Shown here: positions 7,036-59,271 of the stretch, in pieces
Position numbering within the stretch: the stretch's first letter is position 1
Layout: each line of letters opens with the position of its first letter
Source of the DNA: Octopus vulgaris
Lineage: Eukaryota
DNA length: 64,000 bases
Direction: 5' to 3'
NCBI GenBank assembly: GCA_951406725.2
Contig: OX597832.1
Span: forward strand, 5,580,001-5,644,000
Translations under genes and position numbers: made by a program
Notes under the pieces: model-generated
Told to the model about the DNA's origin: nothing
The model's database searches: none
The model's input: the letters and a program-made list of their open reading frames with translations, nothing else

Positions 7036-8510
7036 AATAAAAGTGTTAGTTCTGCTTTAATTCTGATGATCTATGTGGAAGAAATCAGTCTGTAGTAAAG
7101 ACTTTAAGGGAACCTTTTGGAATTAAAAGATGCAAAGTGAAATGCAATCACATCTGTACATAATATCTTTATTCTTTGATATGGAGTCAGAGATTGGTGT
7201 ACTAATTGGAGAAGACTGAATGAAGTGATTTGTTATGAAACAAAAAACACTCAATCTCTACTCCAATAACAAAGTAAAGTTAGTTTTGGGAGAATTTAAC
7301 AGGTGCAGGTTGTTCATAAATATATTCTGATGTCCTACTGTTTAATGAAGAAATGTTTTAAAACATCTGATTAAATGATGGTACAAGTATTCCTCAACCT
7401 TGCATGAAACTGAATAAAAATCATGATGTTATGTTGACATTTCCTATTAGCAAACTGCCCTGTACTTTTGAAGACAACTAGAATAAAAAATACCTTACAA
7501 GGAAAACAGTTATGAGTTACAGAGAGGAAGAGCATCCAGCTAGAAAATAATACCTCAATTAATAAGTATCTTCGGCCCAAGTTAGCATGAAAAAACAGAC
7601 ATAAAATGAACAGTTGTTATTGTAGTTAAAATTTCACAGAGGGGAATATCTTGTTATTACACAATGTAACAACATTCAATACTAAGAGTAATTACTTTAT
7701 CAAGACATAAAAATATTTAACTTAAAAAATAAAATCAGGATCCACTACGTTTCATTCAATGAAATTTAAGCAAGGGGATTTATATCTTGTGACATATCTT
7801 GTAACATAATATTCTCCTTCTGAGCAAAGTACACACGTTCACTGAACTGACAATTCCTGTTTGTATTTTTGAAAGAGTAAAAACTGTGAGTCCAAAATTT
7901 ACCTTACATTTATTTGTCAATATTGAATACATCAGCTTTATTCATGATAAATATGGAACTAAGTCATATATATGGATCTTTTCAATTGTTGTCACAGGCT
8001 TGGAAATTTTAAGATTAAGTGAAACTTTTTAAAATTTTGTACATTGATGTAATTTTTACATACTGAGTTCCAATCTGAGATTTCCATTTATTCCAGAAAA
8101 ATTTAGAAACATGTTACAAATGTTCAAAATTTGATAATTTTTAACCAATCAGAAAATGGGAATTAGAAGCTGACATTTTCTGTGTGATAGTTGTGTCACA
8201 AAATGAAAGCAAAGCATTATGAAAGTTGTTTATGTGTGCAATGCTGGTTTTTGATTGGCTAAAATTACCCAAAATTTGCACACTTTAAAAGCAATTAACT
8301 TATTATTTATTAATTTAATGCAAAAATGATTTTCATTTTCTAATTAACATACAAAACTAAATTGGAATGACCAAATTTGAAAATAACTGGAACAAAATTG
8401 AAAAACATATGAAATCTGTGATAGCAACCAAAATAAGCCATATTTATCTACCTGTCTACACACACACACAATCACTAGCCACAACACATTCTTTATTTTC
8501 TTTCCTTGTT

Positions 8511-8548
8511 TCTTTCTGTGGAAGAGCATAGGCTCGAAACGTTAAAGA
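8511..8548 (+). ncRNA. Minimal hammerhead-like motif with variant core, in a Penelope-like terminal fragment
   Basis: TCTTT-CTGTGGA-A-GAGC atag GCTC-GAAACGTT-AAAGA. The core deviates from CTGANGA. A more decayed copy lies at 15896-15933. Confidence 0.45.
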
Positions 8549-8623
8549 CTTTTTCACTTCTCATGCGTTAAAATAATACATCTTGTGAATTCTTCCCTTA
8601 TATATATATATATATATATATAT

Positions 8624-8748
8624 GTAGGTCCCGGGTTGATTCGGGGTTAACCACAGTAAATAAGGTACTCAATACATAGCAGAGTAAAATTAATTTATTA
8701 TATAGAATGAGCTTCTACAGGACTAGAACTGTTTCATTCAAGAGAAAT
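8624..8748 (-). mobile_element. 5'-truncated copy of the 47288 hammerhead-bearing element, between (TA)n tracts
   Basis: Reverse complement reads TTGAATGAAACAGTTCTAGTCCTGTAGAAGCTC, identical to 47308-47340, then about 85 nt more. The CTGATGA half is missing. Confidence 0.8.
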
Positions 8749-9164
8749 ATATATATATCATCGTCTTCTTTTTCTCTTTTACTTATTTTAGTCATTTGAC
8801 TGCAGCCATGCTGGAGCACTGCCTTTAGTTGAAGAAATCAACTCCAAGACTTATTCTTTGTAAGCCTAGAACTTATTCTATCAGTCTCTTTTACAGAACC
8901 ACTAGGTTAACACACCAACATCGGTCATAAAGTGGCAGTGGGGGGACAAACACAGACACACAAATACATACATACATATATATATATATATAAATATATA
9001 TATATGACAGGACTCTTTCAGTTTCCACCGACCAAATCCACTCACAAGGCTTTGGTCATCCTGAGGCTATAGTAGAAGGCACTTGCCTAAGGTACCATGT
9101 GGAGGACTGAACCCGGAATCATGTGATTGGGAAACAAGCTTCTTACCACCTGTACCTATATTCT

Positions 9165-9370
9165 CTTTCTCTTTTACTTGTTTCAGTCATTTGACTGCAG
9201 CCATGCTGGAGCACCGCCTTTAGTCGAGCAACTCGACCCCGGGACTTATTCTTTGTAAGCCTAGTACTTATTCTATCGGTCTCTTTTGCCGAATCGCTAA
9301 GTGACGGGAACATAAACACACCAGCTTCGGTTGTCAAGCGATGTTGGATGGGACAAACACAGACACACAA

Positions 9371-9418
<48 letters not shown>

Positions 9419-9580
9419 GACGGGGTTCTTTCAGTTTCTGTCTACCAAATCCACTCACAAGGCTTTGGTCGGCCCAAGGCTATAGTAGAAGACACTTGCC
9501 CAAGGTGCCATGCAGTGGGACTGAACCCGGAACCATGTGGTTGGTAAACAAGCTACTTACCACACAGCCACTCCTGCGCC
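9165..9580 (-). mobile_element. Full-length tRNA-derived SINE with internal (TA)/(TG) microsatellite (family B)
   Basis: Head GGCGCAGGAGTGGCTGTGTGGTAAG (A box) and GGTTCAGTCCC (B box). Other copies at about 5335, 8770, 12330, 15160, 23160, 28100, 30185, 42555, 42750, 44800, 45315, 47730, 49605, 53915, 56385, 58055, 60745, 63490. Confidence 0.9.
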
Positions 9581-11251: not shown

Positions 11252-11300
<49 letters not shown>

Positions 11301-11374
11301 AATATTAGGGAATAAATCCAAACTTACAGGGAAAAATCAGATTTAGGATTGAATCCAATTTTATAGTAAAATAT

Positions 11375-11479
11375 TATATTATATTAAATTAGAGACAAAA
11401 CCACTATTAGGCAAATCAAACAATGAAATATTGTTTGATTTGCCTAATAGTGGTTTTGTCTCTAATTTAATATAATATA
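11375..11479. repeat. Perfect inverted repeat, 50-bp arms, 5-nt spacer
   Basis: 11375-11424 versus 11430-11479, loop GAAAT. Confidence 0.95.
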
Positions 11480-11578
11480 TATATACACACACATACATAT
11501 ATGTACATACATATACATACATATATACATTCATCTATATATATATATATATATATACATAAAGCTATACATATACAT

Positions 11579-15399: not shown

Positions 15400-16025
15400 C
15401 TCAATCTCCTCCCCTCTTCATTTAACCCCCTTCTCTCTCCTCTCACACCGACTTCCTCTCTTCACTTCTATCCACTTTCTCCCTTCATCGTCACCTCTCC
15501 ATTATTACCCCACCCCTACACATTCCCACCCACCATCCCTATACATCCCACCCCTACTCCACCCTCCACCTAACCCAAACCCCATCCTCGTCTCCCCCAT
15601 ATCACACCACACACCACCCCACACACACTAGTACTGGCCACTTCCCAGCACCCACACCATCATCCACACACCTACACATGCACATACATCAAGGTCACTA
15701 GCCCCTATCCACACGAACATACACACTCTCACATACACACGCATGTGCACCTTCGTTTTGGGATCACCACTACTTTTTTATCTCCCCTTCTTCCTAGATC
15801 TCTTGTCTGACCACCTCTGTCCAGCATTTGCCATGATTGATTGCTAGCCACTAAACTGTTTTTATTATCTCTCTCTCTGTGTTTATTTCTGTGTTTCTTT
15901 CTGTTAAATAGCGTAGGCTCAAAGCGTAAAAGACTTTCTCACTTCCTGAGCATCAAACTAATACATCTGTTTGTTGTTTACACACCCGTTTTTGTCTTTA
16001 GTTTTGTTTTCTTGTAAATTCAAGC
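15400..16025 (+). mobile_element. Penelope-like 3' terminal region (C-rich tract plus decayed hammerhead-like end)
   Basis: 15850-15970 is homologous to 8470-8585 and ends in a TA/TACA microsatellite. Confidence 0.45.
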
Positions 16026-26640: not shown

Positions 26641-29600
26641 GTGTTTATATATTCATATGCTTAAATATGTGCATATATATATATGTGTGTGTGTGTGTCA
26701 AATGTACTCTTATAATTTGCATGTTTATTTGTTTAAAATGTGTGTATATGTTGTGTGTTTCTGTGTGTATAAACACATACACACACACATATGCACATCC
26801 ATGAACTGAGAAAATAAAACTAAGTGTAAGAGGAATCAGATGTTGTGTGCAAGAAAGAGGACTACTGATATGAGTGCATGATATATGTGGGAGATGACTA
26901 CTGCATAGTGTTGCAAATTGGTGGAACCTGAGAGAGAGACTTGGGAAGAAATGGTGAAAGGTGACTAAAAGATGTTACATCTTATGGAGAAAGTAGCAAA
27001 GGACTGGAACTGATACACCAAACTACAGAAGAACCACCCCCTATGGCAACACATACTCTAACTCTAGGGCAGTGATTAGAGGTTGCAATATTTGTACCCT
27101 GTCAGGCTTAATTTGCTGGCCCCTCACCTTACATCCTTGATATAGCTTACCACATTTTTATCACCTGTCTTTTTATCATTCATAACCCTCTAACTACCAT
27201 CTCCCTATCACCTGTGCCGATTGCACCATCTCCATCATTCTATCTTTCCAGGCTGGTGACTGCATGCATGAGACCACTGTCATCCTCCAACCACATCTAA
27301 TGCACCCCTAACTTCACCAAGCTGTGCTGCCAGCCAATTCTTTCTCTCATTTGAACCACCTCAACTGCCAGCCTTCACCTAACTCTTGTCTGCCAAGCAT
27401 ATGCAACAATGCAGTTTTACAGTGCCTTGCTGCATACACCTGACAGATGATGCTTCTACACTACTCAGGCAACAACCTTCCAACCCATGGGTAGTTTGGG
27501 TGGTTGTTGTTGGTGAAATTCAACTTCTTTGAGTTGCTTTTTATGACACACAAGGAAATGTTGAATCTATTCTTTGACATGTTGGTCTCCCACATAGCAC
27601 TTGAGCAAAGTGAAATGAAGTGTTTTGCTCAAGAACACAAAATGCCACCTGGTCTGGGAATTGAACCTATGATCCAATGATCATGAGTGCAACACCCTAA
27701 CCACAAGGCCACACACCTCCACCATATCATGTTGAATGCACCAGTCCTCATCTGAGAGAGAAGGGATCAGAGAAAATCTTCGAGATTTGTGAAGAGCCCA
27801 GTTACAGAACTTCCAAGTAAAGGGTGGATTTTATAAGGGTAGAGAATGGGTTGATATGCACTCCAATGCATCTTGGATGAACATATAGAAGATAAAGGAA
27901 CTTAATGATATGAAAATTATAGAAGATAGAGAGATATAAAACAACATAAAATAGCCTAATGTATTAATACAATAATAATAGGGGCATGTAAGAAAGTAGA
28001 ATATAGGAAATAAGAATATGCCATAGTGGGATATAAAATATTGGAATATAAAAGTATATATACTTAAGAAATGAAAAATATACAACAATACTTTTTCTCT
28101 TTTTAATTTGTTTCAGTCATTAGACTGCTGCCATGCTGGAGTACTGCCTTGAAAAATGTTTTAGTCAAATGTATCAACCTCATTATTTATTTTTTTAAAG
28201 CCTAGTACTTATTCTATCAGTCATTTTTGCCGAACCACTAAGTTACGAGGATGTAAACACACCAGCACTGTTGGTGGTGGTGGGGAAGACATACACACAT
28301 ATACACACAATGGGCTTCTTTCAGTTTCTGTCCACCAAATTCACTCTCAAGGTTTTGATCAAAGTGCCATGCAGTGGGACTGAACCTCAATCCATGTGTT
28401 TGGGAAGTAAGCTTCTTATGACAACCAAACCTGTGGCTAAAATGAAGATAGATAACTATGCAACATCTGTATATAAACATAAGTATCCCAATGTTAGATA
28501 TAAAATATCAAAACTATAGATATCAAAATATAGAAATATGAATGAGAACATTAAAATACATAAAATGTCAGAAAATACAGAAAAACAGAAAATTACCAGG
28601 AAAAAATATTTCTAAAAAATAGAGAAACATCAAGTTGTAGAATATTAATACTAGCCCTTATATGTAGAATTGAAAATATGTCTATAAGGGGAATAGTGAT
28701 AGATCATATATTATATAAATCAGTAGTTCACCATTTTTTGTCTATGCACTCCTTTGATTACTATTTTATTTTGGTGGACTCCCATAGTCATCCAGTGTTT
28801 AAAAAGTTTTATAGAGACTCCTTTCAAAATTCCTATTTTGTTTACAATACATTCACTTGTGTAGGCTGAACTACATAAAACATCAGAGAAAGAGACCTAG
28901 CAGTTTCTTGCAATAAATACATCAAATTCAAAATTTTATCATGAACCCATACAATACTACTGTGGATCCCCAATGTACTAGTTTGCTTGTGTGGATCCTC
29001 CCACCAACCACTACCACCACATAAGGTCATATGAACCCTGGTTTAAAACCACTGGTATGATTGATCAAATGATCACTTTCGGGAGGAAGATCAAACCAAA
29101 AGCATATGATCAAAGTGCCATGCAGTGGGATTGAACCTCAATCCATGTGGTTGGGAAGCACATGGATTAGGTCTGATCTGAAAGGTATTTACTAATGCCA
29201 CTGAAATCAATTGAATAACGGGAAGAATTTAAGGTACACCATAAGAAAAATCCTCAATCTAATGAAAGCTTCCCAAAAGTCCTATTATATTTATCTATGT
29301 GGGCATCTAATCAAAATCTTATTACATTTCTTTGCTAGATTATCCCTATTGTTTATAATTTCAAGTGTTTCAAGTGAGCACAGATTGCATTTACTCCTAC
29401 TATTCATATAGGAGAAGGCAGTTCTGACCATACAGCAAAAAATTTCATATATTTCATTCTCTTTCTTTATTTTAATATCTGTTTTATTTTTATCACAGTG
29501 ATTCACCACTTCACTGTAATACTTTAACACATTCTAAGCTGAGTGGAATCATGGTCATGGCCAGTGCTGGTGATGCGTGAACGGCACCCGTGCCAGTATC

Positions 29601-45827: not shown

Positions 45828-47287
45828 GTAAAAGTAAAAAAATATACAAACTGGGACAAGAACGTAAAACACCTAGAAGACAACACAAGAAACACAGGAC
45901 GGGACATTCGAAGCCCTCAATCATCAGTCAAGAACCGGATCATCTTCGCAATTTCGGCTGATTATGTATATATATACACATATATGATGGGCTTTCACAC
46001 AGTTTCCGTCAATCAAATACACTTACAAGGCATTGATTGACTTGGGCTGGACTAGAAGATACTGCCCTAGGTGCCCAAAACCATGTGATTCCAAGTAAGC
46101 TTGATAACAACATACTTCATTGTTCCTATGAGATATTCCTAGTCTAAAAAATTCAAAATGTTAAGTTCTTCAGAAAAATTGTTTATTTTTTTCTGAAATA
46201 TATTTAGGAAATTAGGAAAAAAAATACCCAACCAAAAACTTCTTTCTTTTCTTCCTTCTATAAGGATACATTACTATAATTTGAAATCTAGAATCTAACA
46301 ATATATCATATGATTTAATTTGAACAACAATCAGAACATGAGATGGCCAGAGCTGCTCACCCATCCTATCACTAAGGTTATAAACAAAGAAAAAAATATC
46401 AAACAATGTTGATATTCCTTTAATTAATATCTAATCAATATTTCAAAGTTGAAAATTCAAACCTAATTTGCGTAAATTATACCATTCACTATTTCCATAA
46501 AACAACCAGAAAAAAAAATCTATTGACAAAACACTTTGATGAAAAATAGAATAAGCCCACGAACTTAAAATGTGCTTAAAGTTTCCAATTACAACATTCT
46601 TTCAGATGTATTATCAAATTAATTCCATTAAAGATCATTTCTGTATTTTGATTCCCTGAAATATAAATGTAAATGCTGCCAAGTAATAACATAGTCTGTA
46701 TCATTTAGCATTAAATCAGCGGTGAAACACATTTAAAAGGGGGAAAAAAAAAGTGTTCTCATTAACAAATTAAAGAGTTTTAAAGTTGTATGACGAATTT
46801 TGCTGATTCACAGGATAAAAGAAACGATTTTTATTTTCAGTGGATTTCATTTTAAGAGTTAAAACACTATGCTTTACACTGTCAAATGCTATCTTAGACT
46901 CTGTAAGAAGAATACACTTACATAAAATCATTCTCAACATATAGTTGCATCTTATTAAAAACCAACTACTAAGTCTTCAGACTGTCCCTCAATACTATTC
47001 TTCCAGTTGAGGGCTCTTGCTACTCAGTAATTTCACTGCTGCTGGTACCACGTAAAACGCACTCAGTACACTCTGTAAAGTGGTTGGTGTCAAGAAGGGC
47101 ATCCAGTCATTAAAACCATGCCAAAATAGACAGTAGAGCTTGGCACAGTTTTCTGACTTGCCAGTTCCTGTCAAACTGTCCAGCCTGTGTCATCATGGAA
47201 AACAGACATTAAATGATTTATATATACACACACACACATACACATGTGTATATATATGCATGTGTATATATATATATATATATATAT

Positions 47288-47340
47288 GAGCTTCCTGATG
47301 ATTTCATTTGAATGAAACAGTTCTAGTCCTGTAGAAGCTC
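47288..47340 (+). ncRNA. Type I hammerhead ribozyme motif
   Basis: GAGCTTC-CTGATGA-t TTC attt GAA t-GAAA-CAG ttctagtc CTG-TA-GAAGCTC. 7-bp helix I, intact core, helices II and III, GUA cleavage triplet (cut after 47333). Confidence 0.82.
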
Positions 47341-47477
47341 CTTCTATAAAATAAATATATATATATATATATATATATGCATACAAATGCATATATATAT
47401 ATATGCATACATATGCATATATACATATACATAAATACATACATATATATGCATACATACATACATAAGCATATATA

Positions 47478-47630
47478 CAGGGTGCGATAGGTAAATTGTC
47501 ACCATTTTATATTTTTAATTTTACACATACACATTGTTTGTTTTTGATTTTGTTGACTACAAAGTATAGTTGTAAGGTCAGTGTTATTTTCATTTTTGCG
47601 TAATTTAGACCATATATTCACTACACCCTG
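47478..47630. mobile_element. Short Tc1-like non-autonomous element
   Basis: TA-CAGGGTG...CACCCTG-TA termini; only 7 bp of the inverted repeat match. Confidence 0.45.
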
Positions 47631-50118: not shown

Positions 50119-50286
50119 TCATACAATACTCCTACTGCTAAGAGCAGTGAAATCTACTTTGCAATGGCACTTATTAGTAAATAGATGAACATCAAGTTCA
50201 TAGATGAACATCAAGTTCATCTATTTACTAATAAGTGCCATTGCAAAGTAGATTTCACTGCTCTTAGCAGTAGGAGTATTGTATGA
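50119..50286. repeat. Perfect inverted repeat, 72-bp arms, 24-nt spacer
   Basis: 50119-50190 is the exact reverse complement of 50215-50286. Confidence 0.95.
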
Positions 50287-55279: not shown

Positions 55280-58227
55280 TATTATATACTGAAATATTCC
55301 TATTTCAACAAAATGATTCAAGAGTAAATCACAAAGCAGCGATGTTGCTCAATATGGAATGCAAATTAATGGAGTAATGAAATAACAATGCAAAGACATG
55401 ATTAGTGTTTAATTTATTTTCTTTTTAACGTAATTGTAGGAAAGAGTAAGTCAGGAATATTGGAAGATTGATTGAAGTGCACAAGCAGATGATTTGCAAA
55501 GGTAAAAATTACTAATTTGTTATGATAATGATACAAAAAATTAGGAAAAGATAAAGTTTTATTGACGGGCAAAGTAGTGGACCAAAGTATCTCAAAAAAA
55601 AAAACTAAGTTACTCTGGGTTGTTTCTATATTTAATTTTTAATCAAATACAAAATAAAATTATTATAAATTAATTTGATTTGTGTATGTACTGTATAAGT
55701 ATGTATACAGCTAAGACTTCATACATATGTAATATGTTTTGCAACCATATATGTTTATGTGTGGGAAGTAGGTTGGTTGGTAGGATGGAAGAATGGATAG
55801 ATTGATAGACAAATATTAGTTGTAGTAAGGTGAAATTGTACTGAGTTCTTAGCCAAGACTTTTGAGTATTTGTAAGGAAGTTCGTGCAAAGCATGTTGCT
55901 ATGGTCTTTTTTGAATCATATTAATAATGTGGAGTAGAAAATTCTGGACCATACAGTTATGGACAGAATGGATTTACTGAAACTCATTATTCTGTATGAG
56001 TGATAAATATTCTATAACTATAATTCAATGGTTATTGTTGTGTAGTGCAAGGTCAACCCTAATGAAGCAGATCTTACGAGCAAAAGCTGTCTAGCTTTGA
56101 CCAGCTACAAAGGTTATCCAGAGTATCCTTTCTGCTTTGTGAATCTAGAGTATAGTTTCAGGGAAAATGTCTATTTCTAGCAGATAAAGTAACTGCATAG
56201 AAGCTTCCTTGTTTATAGAATTACCAGCAGCTCACAACAATAAAGGTAAAAAACCAAATATTACTGAATTATTATGAATTTTCTTAGGAAAGTCATGAGA
56301 GAGTAAATATATCTGGAAAGAAAGGAGTCTGTTTATAAAGATGCACAAGGAATAAAACTGTTAAAACTAAATGAAATACCAGTTACAGGGGTGTAAACAA
56401 ACCAACACCAGAGGTCAAGCAGTGGCAGAACCAATACAAAGACACACATAAAATGAGCTTTAACATTAATTCACACATGTACACACATATATGTGGCAGG
56501 CTTTGACAGTTTCCATCTTCCAAATTTACTCCCAGGGCAATGGTCAGCCTGGGGCTAAAGCAGAAAACATTTATCCAAGGTGCTGCACAGTGGAACTGAA
56601 ACTGAAACCACATGATTGCAAAGTGAGCTTCTTAATCACATACACACACACACCACACACCATCGTTTAACGTCCGTTTCCCATGCTAGCATGGGTTGGA
56701 CGGTTCGACCAGGGTCTGGTAAGCCAGGAGGCTGCACCAGGCTCCAGTCTGATTTGGCAGTGTTTCTACAGCTGGATGCCCTTCCTAACGCCAACCACTC
56801 CGTGAGTGTAGTGGGTGTTTATTACGTGCCACCGGCACAGGTGCCAGAGGAGGCTGGCAAACAGCCACGATCGGTTGGTGCTTTTACAAAAAAATAAACA
56901 AACCAAGGGCATAAGATACTGGACTGTTGGTTTACTTGTGGATTATTTCATTTCATTGACCTAGACAAATCTTTACTCCTCAGTTCATTGAAATGGAGGT
57001 TAAATAGCAAGCTGGAAATTTCACTTGCTGCTGCTTAATATAGCATAATTTGGAGCTAAGAAGTGACTCAAATGAAACAATTAATTTTATGTGGTTAATA
57101 AATGAAGGGAAATGTGCTAAATAACTATTAATTTAGTGGCAGTTTTGTAAAGCATTAGAATAATTTGGTTTTATTAAAGCAGAAATCACACAAATGTTTG
57201 CATGATTATATTGCATTATGCAAGTAAATGCAAAAATGGGAACTAAAATTTAAGTTCAATAAAGAGAGATAGGATTTATGAATCAGAGATAACTGCTGTT
57301 GGTTTGTTTACATCCCTGTAACTTAAAGTTTCGGCATAAAAATTAATAAAATAAGCAGCAGACTTCATTAAAAAATTTTTTTAAAGCACTAGGGGGCAAT
57401 TTGTTGGACTAAACAATTTGAGGTGGTGCCACAACATGGCCACAGTCCAATGACTATAAGAAGTAAAAGATGAAAGAATATTATATCAATCTTACATATT
57501 AAAACTGAAAATGTCTGTGTGTGTATCGGTATGTCCTTGTTTTGCGCCAAAACGGCTCGACCAAGTTTTCTTAAACTTTACACGCACATTGCTTATGTGT
57601 CTGGGGAGGTTTTAAGTATAAACTGATTTTGAAAAAATGGTTAGGTAAACGGTGGAAGGAAAAACATTTGGGGTGAGTGAACCATGAGAGTAAAATTTTT
57701 ATGCAATTAAAATTAAGAACAGTGGTCAAGTTTTAACAGTCATTATAATTACAATATACAACAATTACAAATATAAACAATTACAAATATATACCACCTA
57801 GCTTTAATCATTTCAATTTTTACTCGCTAATTTCTTAACTATGATTAACCTATTACCCCAGACAGGCTCATCTGGTGCATTCTAAATACTACAATTGCCA
57901 TACATTAATAGTTGATAGACTGCACCAGTCACAGGGAACTCATTTTTCCTTTAAATTTTACCTCTCAGCCACTACCTACCAACAGTTGCAACTGATCCAT
58001 ATTTGCACTCATACTACCCAGCTGTAACAAATATCCAGGAGATTTCTCTTTTGCCTTTTACTTGTTCAAGTCATTAAACTGTGGCCACGCTGGAGCACTA
58101 CTTTGAAGGGTTTAAGTTGAACAGATTGCCCCAGTACTTGTTATTTTTTTAGGTCTTGTACCTATTCTATCAGTTCTCAAAGCAGTGCTCCAGAATGGTT
58201 GCAGTCTAATGCAGTAGAATATAAAAG

Positions 58228-58337
58228 ATATCATGTTGAATGCACCAGTTCTCATCCAATCACCAAAGTTAGGCAATATTAAACTGAGTCAGTACTTAGA
58301 TGGGTGACCACTTGGAAAACCTACGTTCTGTGAGCAT
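58228..58337 (+). pseudogene. Decayed 5S rRNA-derived sequence (pseudogene or SINE3 head)
   Basis: ATATCATGTTGAATGCACCAGTTCTCATCCAATCACCAAAGTTAGGC...AGTACTTAGATGGGTGACC is colinear with invertebrate 5S rRNA and shows CpG decay. A partial second copy lies at 27721-27755. Confidence 0.85.
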
Positions 58338-59162
58338 CATCCTATAGATCCTATATGGCTGAGTGGGTAAGACACTTACCTTGCAGTCATGCGGTTTTGA
58401 GTTCAGACTGGTGCTTATTATATTGGTCGCTTTTGCTGAAGCACTAAGTTATTGAGACCTAAATAAATTAATACCAGTGGTCAAGCAGGGGGACAAGCAC
58501 AAAGACACACACATATAATACAGGCTTTCATACAGTTTCCATCAACCAAATTCACTCATAAGGTATTGGTCAGCCTTGGGCTATGAAAGAAGACACTTAC
58601 TCAAGGTGCCATATAGTGGAACTGAACCCAAAACCATATGGTTGCAAAACAAACTTTTTAACATCAGTTATGCTTGCACCTATATAAGTAAAATAAGAAA
58701 TAATGAAGACAGAGAGCTTCTTACTATGCAAAAAGTGAAAGTTATGCAACCTTTATATATTTCAAATGTAAAGGTTCATCGGGCCTTTGCACCTGAAACA
58801 TATAAAAGTTACTTAACTTTCCCTATTTGCATTGCAAGAAGCTCTCTGCCATCATCATTTGTTATTTTACATCAGTATCACAATGCTTCAAGTAAAGTAC
58901 AATGCCCTTCTCATATATATATATAGGATGATGAGCTGGCAGAAGCATTACTGTCAGAAAAAATGCTTAGCAGCATTTCTTCTGACTTTGCATTGTGAGT
59001 TCAAATGCTGCCAGGGTCAACTTTGCCTTTCAGCTTTTCGGGTTTATAAAATAAGTACCAGCAAAACACTGGGGTTGATGTAATTGACTTGTACCATCTC
59101 CAACAATTGCTAGCCTTGTGCCAAAATTTGAAAGCTATATATATATATATATATATATATAT

Positions 59163-59271
59163 GATCTGGGAAGCCAGAAGGCTGCACCAGGCTCCGGTCT
59201 TTTCTGGCAAAGCTGTAGAAACTTTGCCAGAAAAGACCAGAGCCTGGTGCAGCCTTCTGGTTTCCCAGATC
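59163..59271. repeat. Inverted repeat, 50-bp arms (2 mismatches), 9-nt spacer
   Basis: 59163-59212 versus 59222-59271; the right arm belongs to a family C retroposon. Confidence 0.92.

Follow-up and report, generated by a model that had tools for sequence, protein, structure and literature searches.

A complete hammerhead ribozyme motif lying in a short insert between two TA repeats of the Octopus vulgaris genome raises the question of what the insert is. A first-pass annotation of the 64,000-nucleotide stretch in which it lies (the window) had proposed a nearly naked ribozyme unit belonging to a mobile RNA family possibly undescribed in its lineage; the analysis reported here points instead to a fragment of a longer element of a kind that is already known. 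We consider it probable that the insert is the truncated 3′ end (pseudo-LTR region) of a Penelope-like retrotransposon of the Hydra clade, an assignment judged from the non-coding end alone, whereas the clade is defined by its proteins. The particular family may be an uncurated Hydra member, the comparison being with the available supplement of Craig et al. (2021, PMC8557442). The insert looks ordinary except in its third loop, which is unusually long.

Hammerhead motif between two TA repeats

The insert is 68 bases long and carries a complete type I hammerhead at 47288–47340. A scan of both strands of the window with a type I descriptor returned this motif as its sole full match, cored at 47295, with a helix I of 7 bp, a helix III of 4 bp and the CUGANGA, GAAA and NUH elements in register, open at helix I (Table 1). 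A relaxed scan that permitted one core mismatch still returned 47288–47340 alone at the scan threshold. The null set consisted of 100 block-wise dinucleotide-style shuffles, in which the mean number of descriptor matches was 0.0 when helix I was at least 7 bp and helix III at least 4 bp, and 0.54 at the loose setting. The complete type I hammerhead between TA tracts that the first-pass annotation had described was thus borne out, with every part lying where it had been placed. At the base of helix II, the G10.1–C11.1 pair is absent and is replaced by U47302 and U47313. Hammerhead numbering places cleavage after the GUA triplet.

Table 1. Coordinates and strands of the hammerhead insert, its parts and the second copy of the family in the window
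Feature	Position	Strand	Remarks
(TA)n tract, 5′ side of likely target site	47265–47287	.	
Helix I, 5′ strand	47288–47294	+	pairs with 47334–47340, 7 bp
Core box CUGAUGA (C3–A9)	47295–47301	+	
Helix II	47302–47313	+	3 bp (47303–05 with 47310–12: U–A, U–A, C–G), 4-nt loop
U–U at helix II base	U47302 / U47313	+	position 10.1–11.1
Core G12–A13–A14	47314–47316	+	
Helix III	47317–47332	+	47317–20 with 47329–32, 4 bp ACAG/CUGU; 8-nt loop with central palindrome CUAG
A17 of GUA triplet	47333	+	predicted cleavage between 47333 and 47334 (hammerhead numbering)
Helix I, 3′ strand	47334–47340	+	
A/T-rich family sequence to short 3′ end	47341–47356	+	about 70 nt longer in other copies
(TA)n tract, 3′ side	47355–47378	.	
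Second family copy, 5′-truncated inside the ribozyme, long 3′ end	8624–8748	-	TA flanks 8599–8623 and 8747–8758

The Rfam search that the first-pass annotation had suggested returned no hammerhead family, either among 145 matches up to E = 1 for the whole window or among 10 matches up to E = 10 for 47270–47360. C/D snoRNA (best score 17.9 bits, against a cut-off of 47) and miRNA identities were rejected, as all of them fell below cut-off; these scores stem from the UGAUGA box or from TA repeats. The folding stability of the hammerhead region was unremarkable (z = −1.36). With Rfam blank and a z score of only −1.36, the evidence for the motif is therefore its register and not its stability. Searches with core patterns of 18–20 nt gave one match in metagenome contigs, none in prokaryote genomes and one in viral contigs, and both matches were dismissed as chance, as they contain neither CUGAUGA nor helix I.

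The same results bear on whether the motif arose by chance, or is a C/D-box snoRNA-like sequence or a plain palindromic repeat with no ribozyme ancestry. Such an origin would fit the lack of an Rfam hammerhead, the weak C/D snoRNA scores, the modest z score and an active fold that is not the most stable one. However, the core letters, the NUH site and the three helices all stand in register, the strict setting yielded no match in the shuffles, and the architecture agrees point by point with published ribozymes of Penelope-like elements (PLEs) in the available tables of PMC8557442. We regard an origin of this sort as very improbable.

Relatives of the insert within and beyond the window

The window contains a second copy of the family, at 8624–8748, that is identical to the 47288 copy at 51 of 55 positions. 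None of the differences, which lie at 47306 and 47307 (loop II), 47341 and 47349, affects a core or a paired position. A TA tract leads straight into the second copy at the A9/U10.1 position, and the copy extends approximately 70 nt further in the 3′ direction than the 47288 copy. The distance from the motif start to the 3′ end is 88 nt in the 47288 copy and 158 nt with the long 3′ end of the 8624 copy, and loop III measures 8 nt in both. The first-pass annotation had stated that 8624–8748 carries the same U–U. Both U letters are indeed present, but CUGAUGA and the 5′ strand of helix I are missing and, judged on its sequence, 8624–8748 is for that reason not a ribozyme. Treating the U–U as a family trait on the strength of this copy was reasonable, yet rested on one incomplete copy.

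To follow the family beyond the window, we turned to public sequencing runs chosen by the flank 46700–47220 and not by the insert; none of those listed is recorded as RNA. Four of the 24 listed runs were compared, with contigs aligned to 47280–47360 (81 bases) at 80% likeness. Matching contigs numbered 4426 in run X1, 539 in X2, 81 in X23 and 0 in X9, a zero that is no proof of absence. The X23 matches include one contig at a depth of 4272; that X23 is RNA is only a guess, so this is no evidence of expression. In X1, summed depth reached a peak of 3.2 million, compared with about 750–1200 over the TA flank, values that are not copy numbers. The family is highly repeated. The proposal of a TA-targeting, ribozyme-bearing mobile family was supported; the family is TA-inserted, high-copy and of Penelope-like character.

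The contigs also reveal how the family is bounded at its 5′ side. Depth just upstream of helix I in the TA-flanked form was 1.3%, 1.2% and 0.2% of the helix I depth in X1, X2 and X23, respectively, and about 99% of the summed depth at helix I is without a TA flank. The commonest 5′ loose end starts before 47289 (40, 13 and 3 contigs in X1, X2 and X23), and its letters, of which 30 are visible upstream, are non-TA family sequence that is alike in the three runs. Loose ends before 47288 were found in two contigs, both from X2. The family match begins at 47289, so the seventh helix I pair, formed by G47288, is probably not a family trait; the 7-bp helix I of the first-pass annotation is present in the 47288 copy but probably does not extend to the family. 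Among the rows listed, 5′ junctions fall at seven positions at least (47288, 47291, 47296, 47302, 47306, 47309 and 47311). Four X1 contigs have the reverse complement of 47318–47331 in front of 47302, a fold-back junction that coincides with a natural palindrome and was seen in this one run. Inverted junctions have been described for the 5′ ends of PLEs (PMC8557442).

At the 3′ side, 12, 8 and 4 contigs (X1, X2 and X23) continue past 47356 as the 8624 copy does, and 6, 3 and 1 contigs end in TA repeats at 47357, part of which could be alleles of the 47288 locus. The family therefore runs past both edges of the insert in other copies, which is at odds with a nearly naked ribozyme unit. Nor is the 5′ edge set by helix I, as had been proposed: it is one of several junctions, the TA-flanked form accounts for about 1% of depth, and cleavage would leave a 5′ end at 47334, not at 47288. 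The 5′ truncation is variable, as the two window copies end at different points and the junctions in the contigs are spread. The insert is best understood as an uncommon, short fragment of a longer element, with the position of its 5′ edge at helix I a coincidence.

Several other repeats were noted in the window. A separate family at 8497–8598 (+), with a second copy at 15882–15968 (+), carries a decayed minimal PLE-type hammerhead with its core at 8516, a 5-bp helix I, one core change, a G–C-closed 4-bp helix II and almost no helix III. The 3′ end of 8497–8598 adjoins the TA tract 8599–8623, which it shares with the 3′ end of 8624–8748, so that two PLE-like tails stand tail to tail. A 139-nt insert between TA tracts at 45828–45966 (-) contains a CUGAUGA box, with a 3′ part rich in pyrimidines, and is possibly another PLE tail; motif scans found no intact GAAA or helices in it. 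The TA-flanked insert at 11298–11484 contains a long near-perfect inverted repeat (11382–11472) and resembles fold-back pieces of PLE 5′ ends. Long inverted repeats at 50119–50286, 58688–58870 and 59163–59271, with miRNA-model scores below cut-off, are probably fold-back repeat pieces. Adjoining the hammerhead insert, a 150-nt non-repetitive island between TA-rich tracts (47479–47628) is possibly a TA-targeted insertion, and no second copy of it was found within the window. SINE-like repeats, which are presumably octopus-type, are abundant (for example, 8766–9563, with up to 21 overlapping self-matches) and include a two-unit tandem of period 395. A diverged 5S rRNA match at 58217–58336 (+) (51.6 bits, against an Rfam cut-off of 38) is followed by other repeat sequence and is likely either a 5S pseudogene or the start of a SINE derived from 5S rRNA; shorter 5S-like pieces lie near 27724.

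Hydra-clade Penelope-like elements as the probable source

The available parts of Craig et al. [quoted passage not shown] The clade is defined by protein motifs, namely a reverse transcriptase (RT) with RWK and DKT, a GIY-YIG without CCHH, a CxCX5C linker and a single ORF. Its members include Penelope-1_HM, Hydra-1_aJap, Hydra-1_aMil, Penelope-1_SK and Hydra-1_Obim, the last being a cephalopod Hydra-clade family on record. TA-targeting, hammerhead-bearing elements with a U–U and a cephalopod member have thus already been described, and the suggestion that they are undescribed is not supported.

We counted the features of the Hydra families by eye in Files S1 and S2 of PMC8557442. A (TA)n preference is recorded for 26 of 27 families; here, both window copies are flanked by TA on both sides. 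A U after CUGANGA together with a U before GAAA is found in 14 of 25 families (13 of 24 distinct ones, as two rows are identical), and in the 47288 motif, as in most rows of H. magnipapillata, the U–U at the helix II base is followed by U–A. Helix III is 3–4 bp long and begins with AC in all 25 families, as it does here, and the exact ACAG/CUGU is shared with four of the 25. Of 24 comparable families, 23 have the motif start at 87–210 nt from the 3′ end and the remaining one has it at 425, with one row excluded from this count as a 5′ copy; the 88 and 158 nt of the window copies are similar. By contrast, loop III is 1–3 nt long in 25 of 25 rows but measures 8 nt, with a central palindrome, in the 47288 motif, and most Hydra families have a stronger helix II than the two A–U pairs and one C–G pair seen here. 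The Hydra pattern of U–U, helix III beginning with AC and short loop III is our reading of the table, and the U–U as a Hydra marker is not a claim of PMC8557442 or PMC4209133 in the available parts. We infer the clade from these likenesses.

The presence of the U–U in both window copies and in these 14 Hydra families indicates that it is very probably inherited and not a result of decay, as the first-pass annotation had held. A U–U closing pair looks like decay, yet it can mark Hydra-type PLE ends, and such ends escape Rfam. We rejected the idea that the insert belongs to Hydra-1_Obim or to another PMC8557442 family: the ribozyme row of Hydra-1_Obim differs from the 47288 motif, and family-specific motifs had no match in the available supplement, in which FASTA line breaks could hide single motifs. 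Short generic motifs did match there, and the places shown were unrelated.

Within the window, none of the 43 ORFs of at least 100 aa had a Pfam match to an RT or GIY-YIG domain, and two sub-threshold matches were unrelated; a linked ORF of this type had been among the features that the first-pass annotation suggested looking for. The tandem arrays that it also named were likewise absent from the window, where we found neither a partial tandem or pseudo-LTR nor head-to-tail units of about 300 nt with a hammerhead. The 81-base stretch used for the contigs is too short to show a partial tandem.

These findings bear on a different origin for the insert, namely a non-autonomous, hammerhead-bearing short element (a non-LTR retrozyme or a derivative of a PLE end) that passes through circular or tandem RNA and borrows the enzyme of a TA-targeting PLE. 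A short non-coding piece at very high abundance would be in keeping with this origin, as would a helix III that is predicted to be long enough to form within a monomer. The axolotl retrozyme HHR_Amex2, which has a U–U at its helix II base, cleaves 22% within an hour in monomeric form and more when dimeric (Cervera and de la Peña 2020, PMC7229834), and a preprint by Li et al. (2026, 10.64898/2026.07.22.740005), in its available part, traces retrozymes to the ends of PLEs and describes monomers that are dispersed. Because HHR_Amex2 has a U–U, this feature is not exclusive to Hydra. Against a retrozyme-like element, however, the window holds no ribozyme-bearing tandem unit (the 81-base stretch being too short for a unit junction), both copies are dispersed, TA-flanked and cut at different points at the 5′ side, and the pattern of helices II and III, like the distance to the 3′ end, agrees with the Hydra table. 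On this evidence we consider it an unlikely, though not negligible, origin. A more specific proposal is that an abundant, TA-targeting, short non-coding family has been freed from a Hydra-clade parent and that its rebuilt helix III (4 bp with an 8-nt palindromic loop) cuts as a monomer and switches to a dimer, despite the U–U and an A–U-rich helix II. This proposal is speculative and rather unlikely; if true, a retrozyme-like derivative would for the first time be traced to the Hydra clade, and the family would serve as a natural experiment on how dispensable G10.1–C11.1 is.

On our preferred reading, that of a Hydra-clade 3′ end cut short, the formation of the insert can be pictured from PLE biology, as given in the available parts of a review (PMC6765202) and of PMC8557442. 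The GIY-YIG endonuclease of the parent would nick a TA tract, and its RT would prime at the 3′ end of the element and often halt early, stopping just past helix I in the 47288 copy and inside the core in the 8624–8748 copy. The product would be a 3′ stub between TA repeats, without an evident target duplication. Within the RNA of the parent, cleavage by the hammerhead after GUA would trim or circularise tandem transcripts, and two copies would pair through the palindromic helix III, probably aiding cleavage. The template of the 47288 insert would have been uncut or re-ligated RNA, because the insert spans an intact cleavage site. We infer the enzyme, the cleavage and the dimer in this scheme, and the role of the hammerhead in PLE retrotransposition is itself stated to be unclear (PMC8557442).

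Structure prediction suggests that the 47288 copy folds poorly. Its active fold has an energy of −9.6 kcal/mol, against −11.7 kcal/mol for the best fold, with a predicted occupancy of 0.5%. The loop II letters at 47306–47307 permit a competing 5-bp hairpin that engages G12 and A13, and the piece 47302–47333 alone is predicted to be in the active fold at 1.5%, compared with 16% for the corresponding piece of the 8624 copy. The 47288 copy is probably a poorer ribozyme than its relatives and is probably inert, because family sequence upstream is missing from it and misfolding is predicted. For helix III, the predicted energy is −12.8 kcal/mol as a self-duplex and −1.4 kcal/mol as a hairpin; pairing of two molecules through helix III would fit the dimer model, without saying anything on cellular concentration. 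Monomer and dimer cleavage could be conveniently assayed in a high-copy family whose helix III is longer, and the palindromic loop III, with its length, is the only feature here that merits an assay. Small PLE hammerheads are reportedly the subject of Lunse et al. 2017, said to be the likeliest place for tested small variants.

Comparison with other known systems

The minimal PLE hammerheads of metazoans catalogued by Cervera and de la Peña (2014, PMC4209133, available parts) resemble the 47288 motif in being type I, in having an extra nucleotide after A9 and a palindromic helix III region, and in occurring as scattered single motifs from truncated elements. Unlike the 47288 motif, with its U–U, 3-bp helix II and 4-bp helix III, they have G10.1–C11.1, which is called highly conserved, a long helix II and a helix III that is absent or 1–2 bp long. 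A U–U arrangement was seen in one of the 56 PLE ribozyme rows of their Fig. S3, counted by eye, and this row is from Hydra magnipapillata.

This comparison also concerns the possibility that the insert is the 3′ end of a PLE from another clade (Neptune, Nematis, Poseidon or a ribozyme-bearing Naiad). Neptune and Naiad elements likewise favour microsatellites, and TA targeting and 5′ truncation are common to both (PMC8557442); loop III lies outside the range of the Hydra table; and the available part of a 2026 O. vulgaris annotation records 190 Penelope-like families (PMC13282606). However, typical minimal ribozymes have G10.1–C11.1, a long helix II and hardly any helix III, the U–U arrangement is missing from 55 of 56 PLE rows (PMC4209133), and Naiads are without a canonical hammerhead (PMC8557442). 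Another clade is therefore distinctly unlikely, and a Hydra-clade source remains our preferred reading. In the available parts of the literature, a search that excluded Lunse et al. 2017 gave nothing closer on a cephalopod ribozyme or a U–U variant than PMC8557442, PMC4209133 and PMC7229834; ribozymes are not mentioned in the part of PMC8967140 that was available, and the PLE and hammerhead literature examined contained no cleavage test of a Hydra-clade ribozyme.

Naiad elements, remnants of which are present in cephalopods, resemble the family described here in targeting (TA)n, in being heavily truncated at the 5′ side and in having inverted pieces there, but carry no canonical hammerhead in the available description (PMC8557442), whereas the 47288 motif is complete. 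Non-LTR retrozymes, in turn, have in common with it a type I hammerhead within a non-coding repeat (PMC7229834). They are built of head-to-tail repeats of about 300 nt, whereas the window copies are single, truncated and flanked by TA.
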